From: an uncultured bacterium | GTDB lineage: Bacteria > Actinomycetota > Actinomycetes > JAVEEB01 | DNA: 64,000 bases | Assembly: GCA_964236265.1 (NCBI GenBank) | Contig: CAXSDE010000004.1 | Span: 32,331-96,330, forward strand | Direction: 5' to 3' | In this document: positions 627 through 24,398 of the stretch, one piece after another | Numbering within the stretch: position 1 is the stretch's first letter | Layout: the number at the start of each line of letters is the position of its first letter | Notes under the pieces: model-generated | What the model saw: the letters and a program-made list of their open reading frames with translations, nothing else | Databases searched by the model: none | Told to the model about the DNA's origin: nothing | Made by a program: the position numbers and the translations under genes

Positions 627-747
627 CAGGGTGCTGCCGGCATCGTGAAGCGGACTGCGCCATGTGCCGGACGTCGGCATGCTGAAGGGACGAGCCGGGT
701 GGGCTCGTCTCCTTCGTGCGGTACTGCGGCCGAGATGGCCACGTGTT

Positions 748-811
748 GTCAGAAGCGGCGGGAGTCAGAAGCGGCGGGGGTCAGAAGGGGCAGGGGTCAG
801 AAGGGGCAGGG
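748..811. repeat. tandem repeat, 4 x 16 bp (GTCAGAAGSGGCRGGG)
   Basis: Four adjacent copies are seen directly in the sequence at the 3' end of the DUF222/HNH gene. Confidence 0.7.
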
Positions 812-2446
812 GATCTCGACCACTGGCCGCGGTGTCGACGGTGGCGGCGGGTCGTCGGGGACAGGTTGCCGCGGGAGGGCGCGTGGGGGTGGCAGGGAGC
901 GTTCGTGGATCGCGCACCCTGTCGGGCAGATGAACCGGGGTGACGGGATCTCGGTGGGGGCGGCGGGGTGCGCCACGACGTGGTACTCGTGCCCGGTCCG
1001 CGTGATCCAGGTCAGGCGCCCGTCGCGGCGGAGGAGTTGCCACCCGCCGGCGTCTTTCATCCGGTGATGCCGGCGGCAGAGCGGCGCGAGGTTGCACGGG
1101 CACGTGTCGCCGCCCTCACGGAACTTCACGGTGTGGTCGAGGTCGCAGAGTTCGGCGGACCGGTTGCACCCGCGCATCCGGCACGTGCCGTCGCGGGTGA
1201 TGACCGTGTCGGAGCAGAACTGCGATGCCCGGTAGATCGTGGGGTCCATCGCGATGAGCGAGCCGGTGAACGGGTCGGTCAGCAACCGGCGGACCCGGGC
1301 GTCGGCGGTGATCAGGTCGCGGGCGAGTTGCGCGTGGATCGGCCCGTAGCCTTTCAGGATCGCCGGTTGATCGGTGATCCCGAGGAACGCGCCTGCGGTC
1401 ATCGTGACGTGGATCTCCGTCAGCGGACGGCCGTGCGCGGTCACCGTTGTCGGTGCGGCGGCGAGCTGGTCGCGGGCCCACGCAACGAGCGCGTCCGCGC
1501 GGAGCTGCTCGACCGTGCGGCCGGAACCGACGTGCCGGCGTGCGTATTCATCGACGGCGGCGCGGACCTCGCCCGCCTCGTCCGCCGTGACCCGGAACGC
1601 GAGGTCGGTCATCGCGTCGGGCTGATTGACAACGCACATCCCGCGGCCCTGCTTCGCGTCCTCATGCCGTTGCGCCGCCGCGTCCGGGTCGACGGCGAGG
1701 ACCGCGGTCCGGGTCGCTGTCACCAGCTCCCCGCGCGTCATCTCCCCCGCCACCGGCAGGACTCGGTCACACACCTCATCGACCCCGACCCCGTCGAGGT
1801 CCCGCAACTCCCGGACCAGGTCATCCGCCTGCGTCGCCAATAAGGACCCGCCGGCCAGGGCCGCCCCGACGCGCGCGAGAGGACCACACCGTTCGCGGGC
1901 CGAATGCAACCGGCCCGCCGCGGTCACCGGCGCCAACCGCATCGCCATGGCGACCTCTTCCCGCCCGAAATCGTCCAAGCTCCGCTTCGACCGCCCGGCC
2001 AGTGCCACGACCGCCGCGTCCGTGCGCGCGGTCACCCATCCGGTGACCCGGACCCACACCGACAGCAGGTCAGCCGCGGCCCACGCCGGCCATCCCGCCG
2101 CCCGCCGCTCCAGCTCCGGGACCCGGGTCAGGGCATGCGCGAGCTCCACCACCCGCGGCGACGGCGGCTCGGTCGACAGCCAGCGCAGCAGGTCACCGAC
2201 CGGGACCAATCCCAGGACCTGCTCGACGTCCCATTCCCCGATGAACGCGGGCACATCGAGCTCCCCGCGCTCCAACAAGTGCGCCGGGCACTCACACTCC
2301 ACCAGCTCCTCGACACCATCCCCGGACGGCCCGTCCCACCGGTCGAGCACCCACTGCGGGATCCGCGCCTCCGCTGACGGCGGCACCGACTGACGCACCA
2401 CCGACGGCAGCACCGGGTCAGTGATCACCGAAACATATTCGAACAT
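797..2446 (-). CDS. DUF222 / HNH endonuclease protein (REP13E12-type element ORF)
   Basis: C-terminal HNH motif CRMRGC...DLDHTVKFREGGDTCPCNLAPLCRRHHRMKDAGGW. The N-terminus MFEYVSVITDPV is typical of actinobacterial DUF222 proteins. The six-frame ORF extends to 2650 only because it reads into shifted gpgS remnant sequence; the internal ATG at 2446 is the likely start. Confidence 0.8.
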   Translation of the reverse strand: MFEYVSVITDPVLPSVVRQSVPPSAEARIPQWVLDRWDGPSGDGVEELVECECPAHLLERGELDVPAFIGEWDVEQVLGLVPVGDLLRWLSTEPPSPRVVELAHALTRVPELERRAAGWPAWAAADLLSVWVRVTGWVTARTDAAVVALAGRSKRSLDDFGREEVAMAMRLAPVTAAGRLHSARERCGPLARVGAALAGGSLLATQADDLVRELRDLDGVGVDEVCDRVLPVAGEMTRGELVTATRTAVLAVDPDAAAQRHEDAKQGRGMCVVNQPDAMTDLAFRVTADEAGEVRAAVDEYARRHVGSGRTVEQLRADALVAWARDQLAAAPTTVTAHGRPLTEIHVTMTAGAFLGITDQPAILKGYGPIHAQLARDLITADARVRRLLTDPFTGSLIAMDPTIYRASQFCSDTVITRDGTCRMRGCNRSAELCDLDHTVKFREGGDTCPCNLAPLCRRHHRMKDAGGWQLLRRDGRLTWITRTGHEYHVVAHPAAPTEIPSPRFICPTGCAIHERSLPPPRALPRQPVPDDPPPPSTPRPVVEIPCPF

Positions 2447-2576
2447 GTGTTCGATCCTACGCCTCGCCGGGGGGTGTTGCAAGAAGACTGGCGGGGGAGT
2501 GTTGCAAGAAGAATCGAGCGATGTGACGACTGTTTTCAGGCCGGGCTGTCCACAGCTGGAGTTGGCGCCAGCCCCG

Positions 2577-3155
2577 TCACCATCCCTGAGCAGGCGGACA
2601 GCAGGGGCCGACGACCCCCCGGTCGCACCGCTCTTCGCGTCGAGGAACACGACGAGGTCGCCGGAGGACGCGAGCAGACCCTTCCACAGCGCCTCGCCCC
2701 TTGCCGGGGCGCTCGCCCAGATCCGGCCGGATGTCCGTAGCGGCCAGCACGCGCGCGCCGGCCGCCCCGGCGACGGCGGCCGTGTCGTGCGTCGACCCCG
2801 AGTCGATCACCAGGACCTCGTCGATCAGGCCTCCCGCACCCATGAGATGCCGCCGGATCGTCGCCGCGATCGCCCCGATGGTCGCCGCTTCATTGTGGGC
2901 CGGCAGCACCACCGAGGTCGTCGTACCGGATGCAAGGGCAGCAAGATCGACCGCGTCGTACGAGCCGACCGTCCGCAGCACCTGGCCGCCTCCCGCCAGG
3001 GGCGAGGAATGCACCCGATATTCTTTCGGTTTGACGCCTCGTGGGCAGTTGCCCACACTGAGGTCAACTCCTCGGATCGTGCAACTCCCGGGGATGACAA
3101 CTCCATACCGCTCATCCAGAGGGGCAGAGGGACCGGCCCGGTGAAGCCCCGGCAA
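2577..3155 (-). pseudogene. glucosyl-3-phosphoglycerate synthase-like GT2 gene (gpgS-like), 3'-truncated by an element insertion
   Basis: VVLPAHNEAATIGAIAATIRRH...IDSGSTHDTA...PGKG matches the GpgS N-terminal half. After GKG the reading frame shifts. The shifted frame still reads EALWKGLLASSGDLVVFLDA (GpgS-like) and then diverges into the HNH element sequence. Confidence 0.55.
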
Positions 3156-3249
3156 CCATCACCGTCATGCGCGAAAGCGCTCGGCGGCGACAGGTGCCAA
3201 TTCCGGCTCAACGTCGAAAGGCGCTGGGGAAGATGAGGAAAGGCTCACT

Positions 3250-4509
3250 GTGACCATCTCTGTCGAAGCGCCCGCGGGCGCCTTCGGTCCTGCCACCGCA
3301 CTCGTCTGTCGCGAATGTGGCACGACGTATCCCCTCGGCCCGCAGCACGTCTGCATCGAGTGCTTCGCACCCGTCGAGATGGGCTACGACGACGACCGGC
3401 TCGCAGCCGTCACCCGCGCGAGCATCGAGGCCGGCCCGCAGAACATCTGGCGGTACGCCGGGCTGCTCCCCGCCCCCGCCGAGGAGTTCCGCATCGGCGA
3501 CGGCGTCGGCATGACGAAGCTCATCCGCGCCGACAACCTCGCCCGCGCGCTCGGCATGAAATCCCTGTGGGTGAAGGACGATTCCGGCAACCCGACCCAC
3601 TCGTTCAAGGACCGCGTCGCCGCCGTCGCCCTGTCCGCAGCCAAAGCGCTCGGCTTCGAAACCGTGGCCTGCGCATCAACGGGCAACCTCGCGAACGCGG
3701 TCGCCGCCGCGGCGGCGCGGGCCAACCTCAAGTCGGTCGTGTTCATCCCCTCGGACCTCGAGCCGGCGAAGATCGTGACGACGGCCGTGTACGGCGGCCA
3801 GCTCGTCGCCATCGAGGGCACGTACGACGACGTCAACCGGTTGTGCAGCGAGGTGGCCGGTGAGTTGCCGTGGGCGTTCGTGAACGTCAACATCCGGCCG
3901 TTCTACGCGGAGGGTTCCAAGACGATGGGCTACGAGATCGCCGAGCAACTGGGTTGGCGCCTCCCGGAGCAGGTCATCAGCCCCATCGCGTCGGGCTCGC
4001 TGCTGACGAAGGTCGACAAGGCGTGGCGTGAATTCTCCAAGCTGGGCTTGGTGGACGGCACTCCGTACAAGGTGTTCGGCGCGCAGGCCGAAGGCTGCAA
4101 TCCGGTCGCCGCCGCCTACGAGGCGGGCCGTGACTTCATGATCCCCGTCAAGCCCGACACCATCGCCAAGTCGCTCGCGATCGGCAACCCGGCCGACGGC
4201 CCGTACGCCATCGACATCGCCCGCCGCACCGGCGGCGCCATCGGCCAGGTCACCGACGAGGAGATCGTCGACGGCATCCGGCTGCTGGCGTCGACCGAGG
4301 GCATCTTCGCGGAGACGGCCGGCGGCGTGACCGTCGCGACGCTGCGCAAACTGCTGCGCGAGGGCAAGGTCGACCCGGACGCCGAGACCGTGCTGCTCAA
4401 CACCGGCGACGGCCTCAAGACGATCGACGCGATCGACCACGCCGTCGGCCCGACGGTCACGATCAAGCCGTCCCTCGACGCCTTCCTGCAGACGGGCGTC
4501 GGCCAGTAG
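3250..4509 (+). CDS. thrC: threonine synthase
   Basis: GTG start preceded by GAGGAAAGG. N-terminal Cys4 zinc ribbon (CRECG...CIEC). PLP motif SFKDRVA. 419 aa, typical for actinobacterial ThrC. Confidence 0.9.
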   Translation: MTISVEAPAGAFGPATALVCRECGTTYPLGPQHVCIECFAPVEMGYDDDRLAAVTRASIEAGPQNIWRYAGLLPAPAEEFRIGDGVGMTKLIRADNLARALGMKSLWVKDDSGNPTHSFKDRVAAVALSAAKALGFETVACASTGNLANAVAAAAARANLKSVVFIPSDLEPAKIVTTAVYGGQLVAIEGTYDDVNRLCSEVAGELPWAFVNVNIRPFYAEGSKTMGYEIAEQLGWRLPEQVISPIASGSLLTKVDKAWREFSKLGLVDGTPYKVFGAQAEGCNPVAAAYEAGRDFMIPVKPDTIAKSLAIGNPADGPYAIDIARRTGGAIGQVTDEEIVDGIRLLASTEGIFAETAGGVTVATLRKLLREGKVDPDAETVLLNTGDGLKTIDAIDHAVGPTVTIKPSLDAFLQTGVGQ

Positions 4510-4546
4510 CTCGCCGGTCGGCACGCAGCGCCGCTAGATTGGCGCC

Positions 4547-6958
4547 ATGAGTCGACGGGTGGGGCGCGTCGAGAAAGACACGTGCCGCGATTTCGTGCTG
4601 CCCGCACTCGCGGCGGCAGGGTGGGGCCCGGACATGATTCGCGCGGAGTTCCCGGTTGCTGCGGATCGAGTGATGAGCCGGGGAGGCTTGAGCAGAGACA
4701 TCGGTGACGGCCGTGTCGACTACCTGCTCGAAGCCGTGCCTGGGGTGGCTGTGGCGCTTGTGGAGGCGAAACGTGAGTACCGGCAGCCGAAGCACGGGCT
4801 GCAGCAGGCGATCCGCTACGGGATGCAGCTCGACGTCCCGGTCGTCTATGCCACGAACGGGCGGGGGATCGTCGAACACAATTTCGTGACCGGAGCCGAA
4901 CGGGCTGTCGAGTCCGTGGCCACTCCGGCTGAGCTGTGGAGCCTGTACGCCGAATTCCGCGGTCTCGACGACGATGGGATGCAACTGGTCTGTCAGCCCT
5001 TCAACCGCCGGCGGACGACCGCCGCCGGTGACGTCGTGAGCCCGCGCTGGTACCAGGCAGTGGCTGTCCACCGGGTGCTTCAGGCGATCGCCACCGGCCG
5101 CGACCGGGTGCTGCTCTTGATGGCTACAGGGACAGGCAAGACCTTCACCGCGATGCAGATCGTGGCGAAACTCCGGGGTTTCGAGGCCATCAAGCATCCC
5201 GAACGGAACTATCGAGTCCTCTACCTCGCGGACCTCGACGTCCTTCTCTCCAGCCCGATGAAAAAGGACTTCATGCCGGCGTTCGGATCGGAGCCCCTCC
5301 ATCGCGTGAAGGGGGGCGCCTCCTTCAGTCGTGAGATCTACTTCGCGAGCTATCAGGCGATGACTGGACAAGGAGACGCCGACGCTCTCTTCGGCGACTA
5401 TCCACGTGATTTCTTCGACTTGGTCATCGTCGACGAGTGCCACCGGGGCAGCGCGTCGGCGGATTCCTCGTGGCGCCGGGTGCTCGACCATTTCGCGACC
5501 GCCGTGCAGCTGGGCCTCACGGCGACTCCGAAGCAGGACGCAGAGGTCGACAGCTACGAATACTTCGGTGACCCCGTTTTCACGTATTCACTGCGCCAGG
5601 GCATCGAGGAGGGGTATCTCGCGCCGTACCGGGTGCGCCGAGTCGTTCTGAGCCCGGACGCGGACGGCTGGTCGCCGTCGCCCGGCGAGCTCGACAGGTT
5701 CGGCCGAGACATCCCGGAGGGTAAGTACTCGACCAAAGATTTCGAGCGTGCCGTGTCATTGGTCGCGCGGACCAGGCTGGCCGCGCGTCACCTCTCGGCG
5801 ACCCTTCGGCAGGACCCTTCGGCTCGAACGATGGTGTTCTGCGTCGACATGGAGCACGCGCAGGATATGCGAACTGCCTTGGTCGAGGCCAACCCCGATC
5901 TCGTACGTGATGACCCGGAATGGGTGGTGCGCATCGTCGGTGACGAGCCCGAGAAGGTGCGGCTACTCGAAGCCTTCATGGACCCAGAGGCAAGCACGCC
6001 TGTCGTCGCGACGACCTCGAAGATGCTCTCGACCGGGGTCGACGTCGAGGACCTCAAGTTGGTCGTCCTCTTTCGCCCCGTGGGCTCGATGGTCGAGTTC
6101 AAGCAGATCATCGGCCGTGGCACTCGGCTCTATCCGGAGAAGGGCAAGACTTCCTTCGAGATCATCGACTACGTCGGAGCGAGCGCGAAGTTCAGCGATC
6201 CCGACTTCGACGGTGTGCCGATCCGCGTACGCATCGAGTCGGTCGACGCCGACGGCGACGTGACCACCTCCACGGAGGTGCCGACTGGCGTCGACACGCC
6301 GGAGTCTCCACAAGTGATGCTCGCCGAGCCGGTGCCGCCCTTCCTGGCACACAACCCGGACGAAGAGCTGATGCCGGGGACGGGGGACTCTCTTCGCGGG
6401 AAGCTCTACGTCGATGACGGCGAGTTCGAGGTCGTTGCGGAAGCGAGGCTGGTCCCGGACCTCTCGACCGGCCGGACGGTCTTGGTCGAATACCGCCAGT
6501 ATGTGGCCGGGGCCGTGCGGGCGATCTCCGTGTCCGCGGAAGAGTTCACCGAACGGTGGTCCAGCTCGACGACGCGCGAGGCAGTCCTGGCGGAGCTCGC
6601 ATCGCGGGGAGTGGTGCTGTCCGAGCTCGGGGGCGACGACGCGTCGGACCCGCTGGACCTTCTGCTGCAGGCAGCGTGGAACGTCCCCGGTCTCACGAGA
6701 TCCGAACGGGTCCGTCGCGTGCGGACGGCGCATGCAGGTGAGCTTGCCGCCCTGTCGGCCACCGCGCGCAACGTCCTCAGTGCGCTACTCGACCGCTACG
6801 CAACGCATGGCGTCGAAGAGATCATGTCGGGAGAGCTCCTCGTCGTCGAGCCCTTCCGCACCCTCGGGTCGCCGACCGAGCTGGCCGGCGCGTTCGGCGG
6901 AGCGGCAGCCTGGCATGAGTCAGTCGAAAGACTCCAGGCCTGGCTGTACTCAGCGTAA
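4547..6958 (+). CDS. hsdR: type I restriction enzyme R subunit (EcoEI-like HsdR)
   Basis: HSDR_N-like N-terminus. Helicase motif I LLMATGTGKTFTA and motif II VIVDECHRG. C-terminal EcoEI_R_C-like region. 803 aa. Confidence 0.9.
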   Translation: MSRRVGRVEKDTCRDFVLPALAAAGWGPDMIRAEFPVAADRVMSRGGLSRDIGDGRVDYLLEAVPGVAVALVEAKREYRQPKHGLQQAIRYGMQLDVPVVYATNGRGIVEHNFVTGAERAVESVATPAELWSLYAEFRGLDDDGMQLVCQPFNRRRTTAAGDVVSPRWYQAVAVHRVLQAIATGRDRVLLLMATGTGKTFTAMQIVAKLRGFEAIKHPERNYRVLYLADLDVLLSSPMKKDFMPAFGSEPLHRVKGGASFSREIYFASYQAMTGQGDADALFGDYPRDFFDLVIVDECHRGSASADSSWRRVLDHFATAVQLGLTATPKQDAEVDSYEYFGDPVFTYSLRQGIEEGYLAPYRVRRVVLSPDADGWSPSPGELDRFGRDIPEGKYSTKDFERAVSLVARTRLAARHLSATLRQDPSARTMVFCVDMEHAQDMRTALVEANPDLVRDDPEWVVRIVGDEPEKVRLLEAFMDPEASTPVVATTSKMLSTGVDVEDLKLVVLFRPVGSMVEFKQIIGRGTRLYPEKGKTSFEIIDYVGASAKFSDPDFDGVPIRVRIESVDADGDVTTSTEVPTGVDTPESPQVMLAEPVPPFLAHNPDEELMPGTGDSLRGKLYVDDGEFEVVAEARLVPDLSTGRTVLVEYRQYVAGAVRAISVSAEEFTERWSSSTTREAVLAELASRGVVLSELGGDDASDPLDLLLQAAWNVPGLTRSERVRRVRTAHAGELAALSATARNVLSALLDRYATHGVEEIMSGELLVVEPFRTLGSPTELAGAFGGAAAWHESVERLQAWLYSA

Positions 6959-6999
6959 ATTTTAGTTACAGGTCGTGAGACTCAGATGAAACTAAAAAT

Positions 7000-7623
7000 A
7001 TGGATGAGTGCTACGGTCGCTCAGTGCCCGGTCCCCGACAGGAGCTCCGTCAGAAACTGACGGCACTCGCCTTCTCGCAGTCTGGCTACTTCACGGCGTC
7101 TCAGGCTCTGTCGGTGGGCTACACCTACCAGGCGCAGAAATATCACGTCGACCACGGAAACTGGCTTCGGGTGGACCGCGCGCTTTTTCGCCTCCCCCAC
7201 TGGCCCGCCGATCGTGCCGACTCCTTCGTGCGGTGGTCGCTCTGGAGCGGCGGGCGGGGCGTCGTCTCCCACGAGTCCGCCCTGGCTGTGCACGAGTTGT
7301 CGGACATCGACCCCTCGCGCGTCCATCTCACCGTCGACCCCACTTTCCATACGCGAGACGACGCGGTGGTGCTTCACGTCGCACAACTCCGAGATGACGA
7401 GATCGACAGGCGTGGGGCGTGGGGCGTGACCACGCCTATGCGCACCCTTCTCGACGCCGCCGCCTCGGCCCTTTCCCAAGAGCATGTCGACGGCGCCGTC
7501 TCTGACGCCCTCCGGCTCGGACTCATCACGAGACGCGGTCTCCTCGCAGTGACGGATGGCAGCGACCTCATGGCTGCGCTGCGGCTCGAGCGCGCGTTGG
7601 CGAGTGCGGAGGCGCACCAGTGA
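7000..7623 (+). CDS. abiEi: AbiEi-family antitoxin / transcriptional regulator (type IV TA)
   Basis: 207 aa with the COG5340/AbiEi architecture (N-terminal wHTH, C-terminal domain). Its stop overlaps the GTG start of the downstream nucleotidyltransferase toxin gene (GTGA). It sits directly after an AT-rich spacer. Confidence 0.7.
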   Translation: MDECYGRSVPGPRQELRQKLTALAFSQSGYFTASQALSVGYTYQAQKYHVDHGNWLRVDRALFRLPHWPADRADSFVRWSLWSGGRGVVSHESALAVHELSDIDPSRVHLTVDPTFHTRDDAVVLHVAQLRDDEIDRRGAWGVTTPMRTLLDAAASALSQEHVDGAVSDALRLGLITRRGLLAVTDGSDLMAALRLERALASAEAHQ

Positions 7624-8490
7624 CGGGGTCCGACGCCGCACGCAATCTCGGCCATCGTGTGCGGGAAAGCGCTGCAGCGAGGGGGATCGACGCCGCGCGT
7701 CTGAGGCGTCAATTGGTATTTCAACGGATCCTGGCCCGTCTCGCCCCGACTGGCCTGTGGGTGCTCAAGGGCGGCTATTGCCTCGAAGTCCGGCTCGACA
7801 CGCAGGCGAGGGCGACTCGCGACCTTGACCTCGCTTTGCTGTCGTCCGTCGTTTCCACCGTGCTCGACGTCCAGGATCTCCTGGGCGCAGCCCTGGAAAC
7901 CGACGTCGACGGGGACGGGTTCCGCTTCGACGTGGAACTGCCCGTCGCGCTGGCAACGGATGAGGCGGGCAATCGAGGCTGGCGCGCCACCGTGCACGCG
8001 GCGCTCGGCGGCGAGAGATTCGCGTCCATCAAGCTCGACGTCGTCGCGCGCGCTGCGGAGATCGAGGGAGGGACGGAGACGCTCGACGTTCCCTGCCCGT
8101 TGCCCAGCTTGACGTACGACGCGGTCTCGATGCCGGCAGTGGACGTCGCGCAGCATGCGGCGGAGAAGGTGCATGCCTATTCGCGGGTCTATGCGAACGA
8201 CCGGCCGTCGACTCGGGTCAAGGATCTCGTCGACCTCGCCCTGCTTCTTGATGCCGAGCTCCTGGACGACGCGCGCTGGGCGGCGCGGCTGCGACATGTC
8301 TTCTCCGTCCGGGACTCATCGCCCCCTCCGCCTGCGCTTCCACCACCACCCGTCAGTTGGACCGGTCCGTACAAGGGCCATGGCCGCCGAGCTGTCGCTG
8401 ACAGGGACCGACGTGGTCGCAGCGTGGCAGCGGGTCAATGCGAAGTACGAAGGCGCGATCGACCCCACCATCCAGGAAGGCGCATCATGA
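7620..8490 (+). CDS. abiEii: AbiEii/AbiGii-family nucleotidyltransferase toxin (DUF1814), apparently frameshifted near 8375
   Basis: N-terminal NTase motif (KGGYCLEV...RATRDLDLAL) typical of DUF1814. The C-terminal about 40 aa (MAAELSLTGTDVVAAWQRVNAKYEGAIDP, stop 8488-8490) lie in the +1 frame. Frame 0 instead runs on, with no stop, into hsdM. Confidence 0.65.
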
Positions 8491-9989
8491 CCAGCCGCGG
8501 GCATAAGAACGCAGAGCCGATGACGACGCAGGCCCGGCTCTCGTCCGTCATCAAGGAGTCGCGAAACATCATGCGTAAGGACGCCGGCCTCAACGGCGAG
8601 CTCGATCGGCTGCCGCAGATGGCTTGGTTGTTGTTCCTCAAGGCTTTCGATGACTTGGAGGAGCAACGTGCCGTGAAGGAGCGCGGCTATCAGCCGGCCG
8701 TCGCGACGGAGTTTCGGTGGTCGTCGTGGGGCAGTGACAGTTCGCTGACAGGCGACCCGTTGCTCGTCTTCGTCAACAACCGCCTGCTGCCGCACCTGCG
8801 CGGCCTGCAGGGGTCGGGCAAGGCCACCGACCCTAAGGACACGCTCGCTCGCGTCTTCCAGGACACGCGCAACCGCATGCTGTCGGGCTACTTGCTGCGT
8901 GACCTGATCAACCAGCTCGACAAGGTGCAGTTCACCAACCGCGACGACATCCACACCATGGCTCACCTCTATGAGTCGATGCTGCGCGAGATGCGTGATG
9001 CCGCTGGTGACTCGGGAGAGTTCTACACCCCGCGGCCACTGGTGCGCTTCATGGTCGACATGATCGATCCGCGGCCTGGCGAGAAGGTGCTCGATCCGGC
9101 CGCCGGCACGGGTGGCTTCCTGGTGGAGGCATTCGAGCACATGACGGCCGACGCGACCCTGACGCCCACGGCCATGCGGAAAGTCAAGGACGGCATCCGT
9201 GGCATCGAGAAGAAGCCGATGCCCTACTTGCTCTGTCAGATGAACCTCCTCCTGCACGGCATCGAGGAGCCGAACGTCGATGAGGCGAACGCGCTCAACT
9301 TCGGTCTCGCCGAGATGCGCAAGGACGGCGTGGACGTCGTCCTGACCAACCCCCCGTTCGGCGGGGAGGAAGAGACCTTGATCCAGACGCACTTCCCGAC
9401 GAAGTACCGCACCGCTGAGACCGTGTGGCTGTTTTTGCAAGCGGTCATGGCTCGCCTGGAACGGAGTAAGTCGGGTCGCTGCGCGATCGTCGTACCCAAC
9501 AGCGTGCTCTTCGACCAGGGTGTGGGCGGACGTATCAAGGCTGACTTGATGGCGCGCTTCAACCTGCACACGGTGCTCCGGCTGCCGAACGGCGTCTTCG
9601 CGCCCTACACCCTCATCCCGAGCAATGTGCTGTTCTTCGAGAAGGGCAAGCAGGAGCCGCACATCTGGTTCTACGAGCATCCGATGCCGGAGGGTCGCAA
9701 GAACTACACGAAGACCAAGCCGTTGCGGTACGAGGAGTTCGAGGAGTGCGCGACGTGGTGGGGTGGATCGACGCGGAGCGGTCGTGTCGAGAACGAGCAC
9801 GCGTGGAAGGTTGAAGCAGCGTCCGTTAGGGCCGCTGGCTGCAACCTCGACCTGCGTAGCCCAAACCGCGCCGACGACCTCGTGCACCGAGCGCCTGCCG
9901 GTCTAGTCGCTGAGCTGATTGAGGTCGAGCAACAGATCCTCGACCTCCTCCGTCAGCTTCAGGTCGACGTGGAAGCCTTCACGATATGA
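8487..9989 (+). CDS. hsdM: type I R-M N6-adenine DNA methyltransferase subunit
   Basis: HsdM_N-like start (LWLLFLKAFDD). SAM-binding motif DPAAGTGGFLVEA. Catalytic NPPFGG. ATG overlaps the abiEii stop (ATGA). 501 aa. Confidence 0.9.
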   Translation: MTSRGHKNAEPMTTQARLSSVIKESRNIMRKDAGLNGELDRLPQMAWLLFLKAFDDLEEQRAVKERGYQPAVATEFRWSSWGSDSSLTGDPLLVFVNNRLLPHLRGLQGSGKATDPKDTLARVFQDTRNRMLSGYLLRDLINQLDKVQFTNRDDIHTMAHLYESMLREMRDAAGDSGEFYTPRPLVRFMVDMIDPRPGEKVLDPAAGTGGFLVEAFEHMTADATLTPTAMRKVKDGIRGIEKKPMPYLLCQMNLLLHGIEEPNVDEANALNFGLAEMRKDGVDVVLTNPPFGGEEETLIQTHFPTKYRTAETVWLFLQAVMARLERSKSGRCAIVVPNSVLFDQGVGGRIKADLMARFNLHTVLRLPNGVFAPYTLIPSNVLFFEKGKQEPHIWFYEHPMPEGRKNYTKTKPLRYEEFEECATWWGGSTRSGRVENEHAWKVEAASVRAAGCNLDLRSPNRADDLVHRAPAGLVAELIEVEQQILDLLRQLQVDVEAFTI

Positions 9990-11125
9990 CCGTCTCGTGG
10001 TCGCCGGCGGGGCGAGTCCTTGAGTTGCAACGGCGTTCGGTCGAAGTTCTGACCGACCAGGAATATCATGAAATCGGTGTCAGATCGTTTGGCAAGGGCC
10101 TGTTTCAGAAGGAGCCGACGAGCGGTGCTAGCCTCGGTGACAAGCGGGTCTTCTGTGTCCGTACGGGTGACCTAGTCATCAGCAACGTGTTCGCATGGGA
10201 GGGAGCCGTTGCAGTCGCTGGGCCGGAACACGACGGCATGATTGGCTCTCATCGCTTCATGACATGGACATCGCGCGGCGACGTTGATGTCAGCTACCTC
10301 CGTCACTATTTTCTGTCCGATCCAGGGCTGGGCAATCTGCGTCGGGCCTCGCCGGGATCAGCCGGCCGAAACAGAACGTTGTCGATCGCGGCGTTCGAGG
10401 CCATTAAGGTGCCTCTGCCGAGCCTGACCGAACAGCGTCGGATTGCAGATCATTTAACGGACCTGGGCGCGATGTCCGACGTCGCTCGCACAGCGACGGA
10501 TCGACTCAAGGCCACTAGTCACAGCATCTTCGATCGATTGGTGCTAGTCCCCGACCACAGCAAGTACCCACTTGGAGACGTCGTACAGCTAGCTCGCGAG
10601 TCGGTCGATGTTGTTCCTGACAGGTCTTACAAGACCCTCGGTCTGAAGAATCGTGGGCGGGGATTGTTCGAGCGCGCGGAGTTTACGGGGGGCGAAACGA
10701 AGTATCCGCGGCTCTTCGCGGTGAGGTCCGGTCAGCTGGTCTACAGCAAGTTGTTCGGATGGGAGGGTTCGGTTGCCATAGTTCCAGATCGATTCGATGG
10801 GCGGTTCGTGTCGCCGGAGTTCCCAACGTTTGACGTCGACGCGGAGCACATTCTGCCCGACTACCTGGAGCACTTGGCCCAACACCAAGCATTTACCAGT
10901 CAGCTGGCGTCCTCAACGACGGGCATGGGGCAGCGTCGTCAGCGCGTGAACATCGACGATTTTCTTAACATCGACGTTCCTGTGCCGAGCGTTTTGGAAC
11001 AGCAGTCCATCGTCCGGCAGCTGGATCAAGTCAGGCACCTCGATCTCCTCATGCGCAACCGAGCTCGCCTTGCCGACGCGCTTCTCCCGGCCGCTCGGAA
11101 CGAGATTTTCAACGCGATGCGCTGA
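9986..11125 (+). CDS. hsdS: type I R-M specificity subunit
   Basis: Two target-recognition-domain halves with conserved HsdS spacer/coiled regions. Start overlaps the hsdM stop. GC content is visibly lower than the flanks. Confidence 0.85.
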   Translation: MTVSWSPAGRVLELQRRSVEVLTDQEYHEIGVRSFGKGLFQKEPTSGASLGDKRVFCVRTGDLVISNVFAWEGAVAVAGPEHDGMIGSHRFMTWTSRGDVDVSYLRHYFLSDPGLGNLRRASPGSAGRNRTLSIAAFEAIKVPLPSLTEQRRIADHLTDLGAMSDVARTATDRLKATSHSIFDRLVLVPDHSKYPLGDVVQLARESVDVVPDRSYKTLGLKNRGRGLFERAEFTGGETKYPRLFAVRSGQLVYSKLFGWEGSVAIVPDRFDGRFVSPEFPTFDVDAEHILPDYLEHLAQHQAFTSQLASSTTGMGQRRQRVNIDDFLNIDVPVPSVLEQQSIVRQLDQVRHLDLLMRNRARLADALLPAARNEIFNAMR

Positions 11126-11783
11126 CACTCGACCATTGGTCGCCGGCGACTATCACGTGATCGAGGAGCCGCAAACCTACGTCTGCACTGGAGCCTTGCA
11201 GTCGCTGGGTCGCTGCCACGTCGTCCGCGCTCGGGGCAACAGTCCCGCCGGGATGGTTGTGGGCAAGCGCGAACGACAACCCGTCATGGCGAAGCACGAG
11301 TGACAGGATTTCGCGGATCGGAACGGCGCAGTGACTTGCCGACCCCCGTGCGACGAGCACCGTCCGTCGTACACGATGTTGGTTGTCGGCGACCAGTAGC
11401 AGCAACTCTTCCACGGCGGTGTGGCCGATCAGGGGAACTGCAATGGCTGCAATGTCAGCCGACGACGCCAACGACCGGCCCTCGGGTGCCCCGATCGCCC
11501 GCCGCGCCAACGCGAACGCCGAGACCAGCCGGGCAGCCTTCGCGGGACCGATGCCGTGGCGGCGTGCGAGCTCGTCGGTGTCCGCCCGCGCGAGCCCGGC
11601 TACACCGCCCCACTCGGCGAGAAGCGCCTGCGCAAGGTCGAGGGCGCTTTCGCCGGGCCGACCAGACCCCAGCTGAATCGCGACGAGTTCCGCGTCGGAG
11701 AGCGATCGTGCGCCGTGCCGCTGCATTCGCTCCCGAGGCCGCTCATGGTTTGCCATGTCTCTGAGCGGTGTGCTGGGACTCAT
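11109..11783 (-). CDS. radC: RadC-like JAB/MPN-domain protein
   Basis: Helix-hairpin-helix N-terminus (ERPRERL...LSDAELVAIQLG) and JAMM motif HNHPGG. Convergent with hsdS, with a 17 bp overlap. The internal Met at 11756 is a possible start. Confidence 0.8.
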   Translation of the reverse strand: MSPSTPLRDMANHERPRERMQRHGARSLSDAELVAIQLGSGRPGESALDLAQALLAEWGGVAGLARADTDELARRHGIGPAKAARLVSAFALARRAIGAPEGRSLASSADIAAIAVPLIGHTAVEELLLLVADNQHRVRRTVLVARGSASHCAVPIREILSLVLRHDGLSFALAHNHPGGTVAPSADDVAATQRLQGSSADVGLRLLDHVIVAGDQWSSVSASR

Positions 11784-11840
11784 CCCGGCAGCGTACGGCC
11801 GGTCACTGCCTTCCGCCGCCGTCGTCCACAGGCGAGGAAC

Positions 11841-12308
11841 TCACGACAGGCGCTGCCCGGCGCGCAGCATGTTGATCGCCTTCGCTGCGCGCCGGTCACG
11901 CGTCGCGGCCTGCTTGGCCTCACCCACCCACACCGCGTACTCCTTGCGGTGCGTGAAGGCCAGCGCGTCGTAGCGCGCCGCGGCGTCCGGACTGGCGTCG
12001 AGCGCCCTCCGTAGTTCATCCGACACGACGATCTCGACCGGCTGGCTGTCCAGGGACAGGGTGATGTCGAGCACCGAGCCGTCCGTGATGCCCGCCTCCT
12101 CGCGGACCGCCTTGACGAAGCCGAGAACGGTGCTGCCGCCGGACACCATGAGCCTGGTGCGGAACGCATGACCGTTGACGGTGCCGACCACCGGCGCCCG
12201 CGCGGAGCCGAAGACCGCCTTGCCGTCGAACGGGCACTCGACCCAGCGGCCGCCGACGCCGTTCGCCTCGGTCAGCCGGCCCCGGAAGCGCACGGGCTCC
12301 GCGCTCAT
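11841..12308 (-). CDS. DUF1905 / YdeI-OmpD-associated family protein
   Basis: 156 aa from the internal Met (MSAEPVRFRG...). Domain order is DUF1905 then a bacteriocin-protection-like C-terminus. The upstream part of the 295-aa ORF is an Arg-rich artefact. Confidence 0.55.
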   Translation of the reverse strand: MSAEPVRFRGRLTEANGVGGRWVECPFDGKAVFGSARAPVVGTVNGHAFRTRLMVSGGSTVLGFVKAVREEAGITDGSVLDITLSLDSQPVEIVVSDELRRALDASPDAAARYDALAFTHRKEYAVWVGEAKQAATRDRRAAKAINMLRAGQRLS

Positions 12309-12829
12309 CGACCCGGTGCGGCAGCGTGGACACGACCCGCGGAGTCGCGCAGCGTCGACCGCACCTGCTCGGTGATGCGTTGTGCGTCGACGGCGAACAC
12401 GCGGCTCCGCAGCCGGACGAAGGACCAGGCGAAGCCGCCGAACGCGATCGCTGCCGGTCCCAGCACATACGCGCCCGGCGTGGGATCGCCGTTGACGATG
12501 GGGACGACGGTCATGACGGCGCAGAACGTGGCGACGACGGCGTACATCCACGGGACGACGACCTCCGCGAACGACTCCACGATCGTCGCCGTGAGTGTCA
12601 GCACGCCGCCGTCCGTCGTCAGCCGGCCCCTGAGGTGGGGGTAGGCGTGATAGCGCGACGGGAGCACGGTCCGCGCACGGACGGCTCCGTCCGCGCCCAC
12701 GCGCAGTGCCAGGTGGTGCGATGCCCACTCCCTGCGCAGCGAGTCGGCCCGCGCGGCGAGGGCCGCGAGGCCCCCGGCGCCGCTCGAGGGCCCCAGGTCC
12801 ATCGCCACGTCGCGCTGCTGCCGTCCCAT
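12305..12829 (-). CDS. hypothetical membrane protein (2 predicted C-terminal TM helices)
   Basis: Internal Met MGRQQRDV. Hydrophobic stretches WMYAVVATFCAVMTVVPIV and LGPAAIAFGGFAWSFV. The stop is coupled to the DUF1905 start (ATGA). Confidence 0.35.
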   Translation of the reverse strand: MGRQQRDVAMDLGPSSGAGGLAALAARADSLRREWASHHLALRVGADGAVRARTVLPSRYHAYPHLRGRLTTDGGVLTLTATIVESFAEVVVPWMYAVVATFCAVMTVVPIVNGDPTPGAYVLGPAAIAFGGFAWSFVRLRSRVFAVDAQRITEQVRSTLRDSAGRVHAAAPGR

Positions 12830-12917
12830 GCGGCGATTGTCGCGCCCCGGGGAGGGCACGTCGATCGCGGACCGGGAGAAGGTGGGCAGAGGTCTAGACC
12901 TGTTGTACGGTCGCGAG

Positions 12918-14627
12918 ATGCGGCGCAGAGCGGGCACACGCGCGGGCGTCCTGGTGATCGTGGCCGCCGTGGCCGCCGGCTGCTCGCGTCCGACGACCAC
13001 CCCGAACGCGCCGATCACCACGAACGCGACGACAGTGACAACGCCAGCCAGCCCCGCACCGAGCAGCAGCAGCCCGCTTCCGATCCCCTCCCCGAAGGAC
13101 GGCGACACCGCCATGACAGTTGCGACGCCCGACGCGGCCCTCACGCTGGTGCCCGCCCCGGCGCAGGTCACCGCGACGCCAGGCGGCCCGTTCGTCCTGA
13201 CCGAGGCGACCGCCGTGATCGCCGGGGACGGTGCGACGGCCGTCGCCGAGCAGCTCGCCGCGCTGCTGCGCCCGGCCACCGGCTATCCGGTGCCCGTGAC
13301 GCGCGTGACGACGGGCGCGACCCCCGCCCACGGCACGATCCGCCTCGCCCTCGAGGCCGCCGCCACCGACCTCGGCGACGAAGGTTACGAGCTGTCGGTC
13401 ACGGCGAGGGCCATCACGGTCAAGGCGCAAGCTCCGGCCGGCCTGTTCTACGGCGTGCAGACCCTCCGGCAACTCCTGCCGGTGACCATCGAGTCGCGGA
13501 CCTCGCAAGCGGGCCCGTGGTCGATCGGGGCGACGCACATCGTCGACACCCCGCGTTACCCGTGGCGGGGCGCCATGCTCGATGTCTCGCGGCACTTCTT
13601 CGCCCCGGCCGACGTGCAGAGGTACATCGACGAGATCGCCCTCTACAAGCTCAACGTCCTGCACCTGCACCTGTCGGACGACCAGGGCTGGCGCATCGCG
13701 ATCGCGGGCCGCCCGCGGCTGACCGAGATCGGCGCGCTCACCGCGGTCGGGGGTGGCGCCGGCGGCTACTACACCAAGCAGGACTACACGAACATCGTCG
13801 AGTACGCGGCCGCGCGGTTCGTGACGGTCATCCCCGAGATCGACATGCCGGGGCACACGAATGCCGCGCTGTCGTCGTACGAGGAACTCAACTGCAACGG
13901 CAAGGCGACCGAGCCCTACACGGGGATCGAGGTCGGCTTCAGTTCTCTCTGCATCGACGCCGACGCCACCTACGAGTTCCTCGACATCGTGCTCGGTGAG
14001 CTCGCCGCGATGACACCGGGGCCGTACCTGCACATCGGCGGCGATGAGGTGCAGACCCTCAGTGACGAGCAATACACGTCATTCATCGAGCGGGTGCAGG
14101 CGATCGTGACGAAGCACGGCAAGACGCTCGTCGGCTGGGAGGAGACGGCGCAGGCCACGCTCCGCGCCGGCTCGGTCGTGCAGTACTGGAACACCACCAG
14201 CAAGTTCGCGGCACTGCTGGCGAAGTCGTCGGCGCGCGGGGTGAAGCTCGTCCTGTCGCCGGCGGACCGCTCGTACCTCGACATGAGGTACGACGACGAC
14301 CACCCGCTCGGCCTCGAGTGGGCCGGCCGGGTCAGCGTGCTGCAGAGCTACGACTGGGACCCCGGCTCCGTGATCCGCGATGCGGCCCCCGGCAGTGTGC
14401 TCGGCGTCGAAGCGCCGCTGTGGTCCGAGACCCTGGAGACGTTGGCCGACGTCGAATCGATGGCATTTCCGCGGCTCCCGGCGATTGCGGAGGCGGGCTG
14501 GTCATCCGCCGGGCGCGACTGGGCGGCGTTCCGCGCGCGCCTGGCCGCGCAGGCGCTGCGGTGGGAGGCGATGGGCGTCAACTACCACCGCGCCCCGGGC
14601 GTCGACTGGCCGGCAGCGCGCGCGTGA
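12918..14627 (+). CDS. beta-N-acetylhexosaminidase (GH20) lipoprotein
   Basis: Lipoprotein signal LVIVAAVAAGCS. GH20 catalytic region HIVDTPRYPWRGAMLDVSRHF...LHLHLSDDQGWR...HIGGDEV. Confidence 0.85.
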   Translation: MRRRAGTRAGVLVIVAAVAAGCSRPTTTPNAPITTNATTVTTPASPAPSSSSPLPIPSPKDGDTAMTVATPDAALTLVPAPAQVTATPGGPFVLTEATAVIAGDGATAVAEQLAALLRPATGYPVPVTRVTTGATPAHGTIRLALEAAATDLGDEGYELSVTARAITVKAQAPAGLFYGVQTLRQLLPVTIESRTSQAGPWSIGATHIVDTPRYPWRGAMLDVSRHFFAPADVQRYIDEIALYKLNVLHLHLSDDQGWRIAIAGRPRLTEIGALTAVGGGAGGYYTKQDYTNIVEYAAARFVTVIPEIDMPGHTNAALSSYEELNCNGKATEPYTGIEVGFSSLCIDADATYEFLDIVLGELAAMTPGPYLHIGGDEVQTLSDEQYTSFIERVQAIVTKHGKTLVGWEETAQATLRAGSVVQYWNTTSKFAALLAKSSARGVKLVLSPADRSYLDMRYDDDHPLGLEWAGRVSVLQSYDWDPGSVIRDAAPGSVLGVEAPLWSETLETLADVESMAFPRLPAIAEAGWSSAGRDWAAFRARLAAQALRWEAMGVNYHRAPGVDWPAARA

Positions 14628-15739: not shown

Positions 15740-17548
15740 GTGGCTGCGTCGCTACGCGATGTCCGACGTGAGCACCCTGGGCGCGCGCGGGGAGACAAAG
15801 TTCTTGCCACCCGCACGTCGGCGGCCCGCGAAAGGGTCGAGACGGCCCAGGGCGGGGACGTTGGCCGCGTGACGATCACCTCAGGCGGCCCGCCGCTGCT
15901 CGACGCTCTGCTGCGGTTGCGCGCGGCGGTCGCCGTGACGCACCTGACCCTCGATGTCCCCGGTGCCGCTGCAGCGCGCGACGACCAGCGCCGGCTTCTC
16001 GATCAACTCGACGACTACGTCCTGCCACGCCTGCGCCGGCTGGACGCGCCGCTGCTCGCTGTCGTCGGGGGCTCGACCGGCGCGGGCAAGTCGACGCTGG
16101 TCAACTCACTCGTCGGTGAACGCGTCACCCGCTCGGGTGTGCTGCGCCCGACGACCCGGGCCCCGATGCTGATCTGCCACCCCGACGATGCGGCGTGGTT
16201 CGCCGACGAGCGGATCCTGCCCGGGATGACGCGCGCACCAGGCGGCTCCGACGCGCCGGCGACTCTCGGGCTCGTCTCCTCCGACGCCGTGCCCCGCGGC
16301 CTGGCACTGCTCGACGCCCCGGACGTCGACTCGATCGTCGTGGAAAACCGGCGGCTGGCGCGTCAGCTGCTCGACGCGGCCGACATGTGGCTGTTCGTCA
16401 CGACAGCCGCGCGCTACGCCGACGCGGTCCCGTGGGATCTCCTGCGCGAGGCCGGCGAGCGCGGGATCGCCCTCGCGATCGTCCTCGACCGCGTCCCGGC
16501 CGAGGCGCTCGGCGAGGTCGCCGCGGATCTGACCGCCAACCTCGAGGCCAACGGCCTCGGCTGGGCGCCATTGTTTTCCGTCGTCGAGACGCCCGCCGTC
16601 GACGGGCTGCTGCCGCCCGAGGCCGTCGCGCCGCTGCGCGACTGGCTGCAGGCCCTCGCCGCCGACGCCGCCTCCCGCGACGAGGTCGTGCGCCAGACCC
16701 TCGCCGGCGCGCTGCGGACCGTGGCAGAAAGGGCCCGCGCCCTGGTTGCCGCCCAGGAAGCGGAGGCCCAAGGTGCCGCCGAGTTGTCGGGCGTGGCCGG
16801 GTCGGCCTTCGCCGCGGCCTTGACCGACACCGACGACGCACTGCGCGACGGCCGCGTGCTGCGCGGCGAGGTGCTCGTGCGCTGGCAGGAGTTCGTCGGG
16901 ACCGGTGAACTGCTGCGCACGCTCGAGTCGCGTATCGGTCGGCTGCGCGACCGGATCGCGGCAGCGGTGACCGGCCGCCCGCCGGCCGGCGCCGACCTCA
17001 CCGCCGCGCTCGAGACCGGCGTGGAGGCCCTGGTCCGCGACGCCGACGCGCGCGCCGCGCAGCGCATCGCCGATGCGTGGGGGCACCGCCCGGACGGGGC
17101 GTCGCTCGTCCGCGAGCACGCCCTCGATCGCCCGTCGCCCGAGTTCGCCGGGCGCGCGAAGGACATGGTCCGCGAGTGGCAGCACGGAATCCTGGACATC
17201 GTCCGCGACACGGCTCAGGGGAAGCGGACGGTGGCGCGCATCCTCTCGTACGGCGTGAACGGAGCCGCACTCTTCGTCATGGTTGCCGTCTTCGCGCACA
17301 CCGGTGGGCTGAGCGGCGGAGAGGTCGCGGTCGCCGGCGGCGCGTCCGCCGTCGGGCAGAAGCTGCTCGAGGCGCTGCTCGGCGACCAGGCCGTGCGGGA
17401 CCTCGCGGCCCAGGCGCGCTCGGACCTCCGTCGGCGCGTCGAGGAGCTGTTCGCGACGGAGCGCGCCCGCTACGACTCGGTCCTGCCGGCGCCCGCGCCG
17501 CCGGCGCTCGCGGAGGCTGCCGCGAGCGTCGAGCGGGCGACCCGGTGA
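15740..17548 (+). CDS. dynamin-like / MMR_HSR1-type GTPase (paralog 1)
   Basis: P-loop GGSTGAGKSTLVNSL. G2/G3-like LLDAPDVDS. Long alpha-helical C-terminus. Start codon uncertain. Confidence 0.65.
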   Translation: MAASLRDVRREHPGRARGDKVLATRTSAARERVETAQGGDVGRVTITSGGPPLLDALLRLRAAVAVTHLTLDVPGAAAARDDQRRLLDQLDDYVLPRLRRLDAPLLAVVGGSTGAGKSTLVNSLVGERVTRSGVLRPTTRAPMLICHPDDAAWFADERILPGMTRAPGGSDAPATLGLVSSDAVPRGLALLDAPDVDSIVVENRRLARQLLDAADMWLFVTTAARYADAVPWDLLREAGERGIALAIVLDRVPAEALGEVAADLTANLEANGLGWAPLFSVVETPAVDGLLPPEAVAPLRDWLQALAADAASRDEVVRQTLAGALRTVAERARALVAAQEAEAQGAAELSGVAGSAFAAALTDTDDALRDGRVLRGEVLVRWQEFVGTGELLRTLESRIGRLRDRIAAAVTGRPPAGADLTAALETGVEALVRDADARAAQRIADAWGHRPDGASLVREHALDRPSPEFAGRAKDMVREWQHGILDIVRDTAQGKRTVARILSYGVNGAALFVMVAVFAHTGGLSGGEVAVAGGASAVGQKLLEALLGDQAVRDLAAQARSDLRRRVEELFATERARYDSVLPAPAPPALAEAAASVERATR

Positions 17549-22667: not shown

Positions 22668-24398
<1,731 letters not shown>

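Follow-up and report, generated by a model that had tools for sequence, protein, structure and literature searches.

A truncated gpgS remnant next to an SOS-boxed DUF222-HNH nuclease gene in an uncultured actinomycete

A truncated gpgS (glucosyl-3-phosphoglycerate synthase) gene lies next to a gene for a DUF222-HNH nuclease in a stretch of 64,000 nucleotides (64 kb) of DNA from an uncultured actinomycete (contig CAXSDE010000004.1, positions 32,331 to 96,330), the whole of which is called the window here. The closest described counterpart of the nuclease gene is the 13E12 family of Mycobacterium tuberculosis with the REP13E12 loci (e.g. Rv0094c/Rv0095c, Rv1148c, Rv1587c/Rv1588c, Rv1945 and Rv3466/Rv3467), which has the DUF222 domain in common with the window gene, an HNH nuclease signature (assigned by NCBI annotation) that is found in the window gene too, a LexA box TCGAAC-N4-GTTCGA at the promoter (PMC3381160) and a tie to structural variation. 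This mycobacterial LexA consensus has been defined in M. tuberculosis, where most 13E12-family genes are bound and regulated by LexA (PMC3381160). Recombination between two 13E12 copies has been documented in the same species (PMC13157036), and DUF222/13E12 proteins have no defined biological function (PMC13061034). Unlike its mycobacterial counterparts, the window gene resides in a Frankiaceae-like host with one copy seen in 64 kb, has its start codon inside the SOS box and is predicted to give rise to a leaderless transcript. Membership in REP13E12, a nucleotide repeat of M. tuberculosis, is unlikely at the nucleotide level; the likeness lies in the protein family and its regulation.

With the free-standing HNH homing endonuclease genes, such as the mob genes of phage T4, the window gene shares the organization as a single-gene cassette with its own promoter, the HNH catalytic fold, the lack of a transposase and of terminal repeats, and a mostly intergenic position in varying contexts. 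It differs from them in that it is chromosomal and not phage-borne, apparently SOS-regulated, equipped with a 300-amino-acid DUF222 domain and without a known cognate cleavage or homing site, while its orthologues at two other loci (L082 and L084) look vertically inherited. The remnant, for its part, aligns over its 115 N-terminal codons with GpgS (Rv1208-type, NF010496), and the synteny with a divergent thrC gene is also conserved.

The object is a real but fairly ordinary genome scar. With a probability of about 0.6 it arose by a replacement or deletion, one end of which is situated at 2635|2636 beside an intact and self-contained DUF222-HNH cassette that would be repressed by LexA. In the genome collection matches to thrC are only 72–75% identical, and the closer relatives came from a protein search with thrC, which led to a 90% cluster of 'Frankiaceae/Frankiales bacterium' sequences with two readable contigs, L168 and L169. 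The features of the scar, described in part by comparison with these contigs and with L081, the locus of the closest nuclease homologue, are as follows.

2636–2981, minus strand: gpgS pseudogene remnant, from GTG at 2981 to the codon of ...VVFLDA that ends at 2636, homologous to the intact gpgS of L168 and L169
2697–2700: homopolymer CCCC (GGGG on the coding strand), one base longer than in the L168 alignment, by which gpgS goes out of frame after ...ERPGKG
2635–2636: rearrangement breakpoint, where homology to L168 and L169 stops in the DXD motif region of gpgS, directly after ...VVFLDA
2483–2635, minus strand: junction DNA that connects the gpgS remnant to the nuclease open reading frame (ORF) in phase and with no stop codon, without a homologue in any fetched locus
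2439–2482, minus strand: nuclease promoter/operator with −35 TTGCAA (2482–2477), −10 TAGGAT (2459–2454) and LexA/SOS box (2454–2439)
797–2446, minus strand: intact DUF222 and HNH nuclease gene, 549 amino acids, protein P0001, Pfam PF02720
748–812: 4.1 tandem copies of a 16-nucleotide unit (coding-strand sequence CCCTGCCCCTTCTGAC), repeating the last codons and the stop codon of the nuclease gene
675–723, minus strand: stem-loop (predicted fold) that follows the nuclease gene, shared with L081 and marking the 3' end of the conserved cassette

The two relatives are 80–83% identical to the window at the nucleotide level and carry an intact gpgS of 300 (L168) and 306 (L169) amino acids beside thrC, which bears out the suggestion of an earlier note, made from the sequence alone, that gpgS is truncated at this site. 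By blastn, L168 742–2606 corresponds to window 2636–4509 and L169 6998–8877 to window 2636–4516; both relatives thus lose homology at the identical base. Of the 300–306 codons in the orthologues 115 are kept, and 62% of the gene as judged against L168 and L169, that is ~185–190 codons or the distal 567–570 nt, is missing. Comparison with close orthologues places the start at the GTG at 2981, with GGGAGG upstream. From there the minus-strand frame reads ...TSVVLPAHNEAATIG...DSGSTHDTAAV...GERPGKG and the neighbouring frame carries on as EALWKGLLASSGDLVVFLDA, while a frameshift-aware protein-to-DNA alignment with two GpgS orthologues finds a single +1 shift at ~2693–2697 and ends at 2636; the DNA alignment with L168 shows directly that the window has CCCC at 2697–2700 versus CCC in the relatives. 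Reading of the frames, protein alignment and the CCC of L168 are therefore in agreement with the earlier note, which had followed GpgS to ...ERPGKG, then an extra base and then EALWKGLLASSGDLVVFLDA.

After repair of the frame, the gpgS fragment scores 125 bits against the NCBIfam equivalog NF010496 and covers profile positions 18–125 of 307, so that it stays below the cut-off of 262 bits and is without the C-terminal half, versus 387–407 bits for the intact GpgS of L001, L168 and L169 (L168 390, L169 387). Cut inside the DXD motif, frameshifted and deprived of 62% of its length, the remnant, to judge from its sequence, cannot encode an active GT-A glycosyltransferase. Similarity to the C-terminal part of GpgS is found neither at 1–800 nor elsewhere in the 64-kb window; the earlier note had not found the 3' third at 1–800, and the absence stands, the amount being larger at ~62%. 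Nor does correction of the single base give back a full gpgS, the recovery of which would have spoken against the earlier note; the alignment stops at 2636. A continuation of gpgS past FLDA in other frames ('RGVVGP', 'PLLS') was ruled out by the frameshift-aware alignment and by the DNA alignments with L168 and L169, all of which stop at 2636.

The remnant is 68–71% identical to the orthologues in amino acid sequence with a ratio of nonsynonymous to synonymous substitution rates (dN/dS) of 0.25–0.43, the two intact orthologues being 72% identical to each other with a ratio of 0.26, and there is one lesion within the stump. As the stump resembles the orthologues as much as the intact pair resemble each other, the truncation is recent on that time scale.

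Beyond the breakpoint, DNA new to the locus fills the window from 2635 to its left edge. As it also contains small orphan ORFs, what was replaced may exceed the nuclease cassette in size. L168 and L169 are without the nuclease gene here, with the right flank conserved and the left flank without counterpart, and 1–675 has no counterpart in any fetched locus. The window also lacks every gene of the 6.4 kb past gpgS in L169, namely a 209-amino-acid ORF, a two-component system and a CDC48-type ATPase gene, as well as the otsA/otsB-like neighbours of gpgS-bearing L001, which were looked for in it. Two small plus-strand ORFs, 94–309 and 390–626, converge on the nuclease gene; neither matches Pfam or PHROG, and the first has just three homologues (78–85 amino acids, hypothetical) in a database of 5.8 billion clusters.

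The nuclease gene is the next ORF after the gpgS remnant, in the same orientation, and starts with the ATG at 2446; the GTG at 2650, with which the ORF 797–2650 begins, is not its start. Its product scores 53.1–53.5 bits against PF02720 (DUF222; cut-off 24.4), which the listed homologues carry too, and possesses a C-terminal HNH motif (zinc-binding Cys/His and D-H...N...H); the assignment of this neighbour to the DUF222/HNH proteins of the 13E12 family in the earlier note is thereby upheld. The protein retains every residue that is invariant in an alignment of 51 family sequences, C422, D437, H438 and H461 among them, and also the nearly invariant N452. With a dN/dS of 0.24 versus the 71%-identical L081 homologue, the gene is under purifying selection. 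The AlphaFold model (predicted local distance difference test, pLDDT, 81.6; predicted template modelling score, pTM, 0.75) displays an N-terminus of poor order, an all-helical DUF222 domain modelled with confidence at residues ~61–345, a beta-rich region that includes the HNH beta-beta-alpha-metal core at residues ~418–470 (window ~1037–1195), and a disordered Pro-rich tail which ends in a conserved PCPF. According to this model the C-terminal domain has an HNH fold, from which we infer nuclease activity, while the 300-amino-acid DUF222 domain, without a structural match in the PDB, presumably recognizes nucleic acid or the target. PADLOC has no model for the nuclease. Among 5.8 billion database clusters no protein is more than 71% identical, the nearest being from another sample, and a second DUF222/HNH copy is absent from the 64-kb window. 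A metagenome scan with the single protein gave no match, and with a 5-sequence alignment only 30–35%-identical freshwater relatives; in phages and plasmids only weak partial matches were found.

On the coding strand the nuclease gene is preceded by TTGCAA, 17 nt, TAGGAT and 7 nt, followed by the ATG (2446). A perfect mycobacterial LexA box TCGAACACATGTTCGA (TCGAAC-N4-GTTCGA, 2439–2454) contains this ATG and overlaps the end of the −10 element. The box begins with the T that closes the −10 hexamer, a layout which predicts a leaderless mRNA whose start the repressor would cover. The box is the only match with at most one mismatch in 64 kb, at a background rate of 4 core boxes in 369 kb. At L081, L082/L083, L084, L085 and L166 the homologues likewise show a −10-like hexamer and a box with the ATG at its position 7; in L167 the box deviates at one position and a −10 hexamer is not obvious. 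In about 30% of the homologous proteins (36 of 121) the sequence begins with MFE or MFD, the translation of ATGTTCGA. This arrangement points to LexA control of the nuclease gene also in the present organism. The LexA-box layout known from M. tuberculosis is thereby found in further actinomycetes, Frankiaceae-like ones and others, where the operator encloses the start codon. A generic sigma-70 scan had reported no promoter, since the −35/−10 pair scores 8/12 and thus falls under the threshold, and the SOS palindrome had been called a 'terminator'.

Comparison with L081 delimits the conserved cassette to ~675–2482 (~1.8 kb from promoter to hairpin). DNA similarity to L081 comprises the coding region (window 2365–905), the promoter/operator and the downstream stem-loop (local alignment score 50 versus a shuffle maximum of 29), and nothing is in common upstream of the −35 element. 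Terminal inverted repeats, a target duplication and a transposase or recombinase are all missing from the cassette; repeats between its ends are chance 9-mers only, and its sole protein is the HNH nuclease, so that it qualifies neither as insertion sequence nor as transposon. As to the conjecture of the earlier note that elements of this kind may serve prophages as attachment sites, the nuclease ORF is uninterrupted and the ORFs examined, those from 1 to ~24.4 kb, include no integrase. Short tandem duplications are located near both ends of the cassette, one of 25 nt (two copies, 2463–2512) which duplicates the −35 region and most of which is overlapped by the junction DNA, and the other the 16-nucleotide unit with 4.1 copies over the stop codon. 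L081 has a single copy of the 16-nucleotide unit; tandem repeats are also present there, with ~14 nt in two copies upstream (~455–485) and ~18 nt in five copies downstream (~2340–2430).

Elsewhere, the nuclease homologues occupy different neighbourhoods: after a 2-oxoacid dehydrogenase E2 gene in L081, convergent with ileS in L082 and L084, near greA in L085 and at further sites in L166 and L167, in all of these between genes and not inside a gene. The copies of L082 and L084 are orthologous with a divergence equal to that of their flanks. Between L082 5802–6240 and L084 1783–3706 there is an indel of 1.9 kb that abuts the nuclease gene precisely on its 5' side and contains a glyoxalase-like gene, an unknown gene and an ECF (extracytoplasmic function) sigma factor gene; the N-terminal ~80 codons of the nuclease also differ between the two. 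The DUF222 nuclease family thus shifts location over long times, yet nothing in these loci marks it as a transposon.

In the favoured course of events a recent chromosomal rearrangement would have removed the distal 62% of gpgS and everything beyond, upon which the gpgS stump would have come to abut strain-specific DNA with the DUF222-HNH nuclease cassette as its first gene; a one-base homopolymer expansion, later or independent, would have shifted the frame of the stump. LexA would repress the cassette, and the nuclease, a protein with a large helical DUF222 domain and a C-terminal zinc-bound HNH active site, would be made only once DNA damage inactivates LexA. The nuclease itself, or recombination from copy to copy, may have had a causal role in the breakpoint. 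Several points weigh against this reading. Since the rearrangement has its second end beyond the window, it may have been a deletion, a replacement, an inversion or an insertion; the gpgS frameshift could be a homopolymer assembly error, and a metagenome misassembly at 2636 is possible though unlikely. As for the regulation, neither a LexA gene nor another SOS gene was seen in the window, and 72 distant freshwater DUF222 relatives (30–35% identity) are without an SOS box, which makes SOS control a trait of a large sub-family and not of every DUF222 protein.

The data fit one replacement or deletion next to a resident nuclease gene, an insertion followed by a deletion, and a recombination between two copies equally well. 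Insertion of a mobile DUF222/HNH element at ~2636 within gpgS and subsequent loss of distal gpgS from the far side, in essence the proposal of the earlier note, would explain why close relatives have an intact gpgS and no nuclease gene at the site, and accords with close nuclease homologues in at least five genomic contexts, with the compact conserved unit of ~1.8 kb and with the M. tuberculosis relatives being multi-copy repeats (PMC10589994, PMC13061034). Of that proposal the truncation and the variability of the region stand; a discrete inserted element is doubtful, as inverted or direct terminal repeats, a target duplication and a recombinase are all missing. Moreover, ~150 nt of unrelated DNA separate the break from the promoter, the window holds no second copy and the protein database none above 71% identity, the other homologues examined are all intergenic, the L082/L084 copies behave as vertically inherited and two events are needed where one suffices, which together make this course unlikely. 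Recombination between two DUF222 copies, by inversion or deletion, could alternatively have split a previously interrupted gpgS, the 3' half of which would now lie beside another copy elsewhere. The absence of the far-side fragment would then require no deletion, and from M. tuberculosis a strong enrichment of 13E12 genes at inversion breakpoints is known, along with their role as hot spots of gene conversion (PMC13157036, PMC13061034); with neither a second copy in 64 kb nor a near-identical paralogue in the database, and with the breakpoint 190 nt upstream of the nuclease gene and not within it, this is nevertheless very unlikely.

The join at 2635|2636 might also be a chimera in a metagenome-assembled contig and the extra C a homopolymer error, the real gpgS being intact. 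The closest relatives are all metagenome-assembled genomes, the frameshift falls within a 4-base homopolymer and the conserved segment 2636–4516 is flanked on both sides by DNA missing from the relatives. Against such an artefact, which is highly improbable, the junction shows no repeat that would mislead an assembler and the guanine-plus-cytosine content (G+C) is continuous over it. To the right of thrC the window differs from the relatives by an insertion typical of defence islands, past which, from 13169 up to groEL, synteny with L169 is restored; this argues for a real collinear chromosome. The 1.9-kb gpgS'-thrC segment has a strain-specific block on either side, in support of the earlier note's view of the junction as a possible recombination hot spot, though with no bearing on prophage attachment.

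A further, speculative step, which has to be regarded as decidedly unlikely, would see in the DUF222-HNH cassette an SOS-triggered nuclease gene that either causes breaks in the adjoining DNA or is capable of homing in the manner of free-standing endonuclease genes. If true, the truncation of gpgS, the tandem duplications at the cassette ends and the indel on the 5' side in L084 would be repair scars of the nuclease, and the 13E12 family would, upon DNA damage, drive local rearrangement of genomes throughout Actinomycetota. Whichever way it arose, the case shows how a rearrangement with its junction next to a 13E12-family nuclease gene can cost the genome a housekeeping-type gene. Single-copy in the window, compact, SOS-boxed, constrained and situated by a fresh breakpoint, this member is convenient for testing whether 13E12 nucleases cause rearrangements.

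The frame of gpgS after the shift is in phase with the nuclease ORF without a stop in between (2650–2446 = 204 nt). Before the extra C was acquired the junction would have encoded a fusion of GpgS(1–115), 63 amino acids and DUF222-HNH; such an open frame comes about by chance alone in roughly 1 of 10 cases. As a side possibility, the +1 frameshift may have been selected since the junction would otherwise encode this GpgS(1–115)-DUF222-HNH fusion outside LexA control.

On the other side of the gpgS remnant lies the conserved anchor of the locus.

3109–3239, plus strand: SAM-I (S-adenosylmethionine) riboswitch leading thrC, RF00162, 74.5 bits versus a gathering score of 44.4
3250–4509, plus strand: thrC, threonine-synthase family, divergent from gpgS, TIGR00260, 267.6 bits

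The thrC product is 91% identical in amino acid sequence to that of L168 and 95% to that of L169. A family 2 glycosyltransferase (GT2) gene is divergent from thrC in many of the genomes with a 72–75%-identical thrC (Streptomyces and metagenome-assembled genomes of Mycobacteriales), which argues that the gpgS-thrC pairing is ancestral; the divergent synteny of gpgS itself is conserved in Streptomyces and in metagenome-assembled genomes of Mycobacteriales/Frankiales. The earlier note had extended the GT2 coding sequence to 3155. This was not sustained, as the riboswitch occupies 3109–3239 and gpgS starts with the GTG at 2981; the stretch 3075–3155 which opens the GT2 ORF is noncoding, a reverse reading of the SAM-I riboswitch. 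For the same reason the GT2 'N-terminus' finds matches of 85–90% in Nonomuraea and Streptosporangium loci without a GT2 gene. In annotation, the ORFs 797–2650 and 2577–3155 should accordingly not be called genes, and the riboswitch on the opposite strand should be considered. The arrangement of SAM-I riboswitch and thrC is kept in distant actinomycetes, and the threonine-synthase-family protein has an N-terminal Cys-rich ribbon. SAM control of a thrC-type gene hints at a role in the methionine pathway rather than in plain threonine synthesis; possibly, the product is a MetM-like enzyme.

An 8.65-kb block of lower G+C (0.57–0.65), missing from L168 and L169, begins 7 nt after the thrC stop codon and extends from 4517 to 13168, where L169 has 0.73 kb. 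It harbours a type I restriction–modification system and an AbiE toxin–antitoxin pair.

4547–6958: hsdR of the type I restriction–modification system
7000–7623: AbiEi of the AbiEi/AbiEii toxin–antitoxin pair, embedded in the type I restriction–modification system
9986–11125: hsdS of the type I restriction–modification system

This island has no flanking repeats, only chance 9-mers. Between AbiEi and hsdS, 7620–9989 on the plus strand joins AbiEii (amino acids 4–256) and the type I methyltransferase HsdM (amino acids 306–782) in one uninterrupted frame of 789 codons, either a true fusion or an AbiEii that has lost its stop codon. Farther right, a dynamin-like GTPase gene pair (15740–19176, plus strand) is conserved with L168 3712–7022, and groEL (22674–24398) is 90.7% identical to that of L169 at the nucleotide level.

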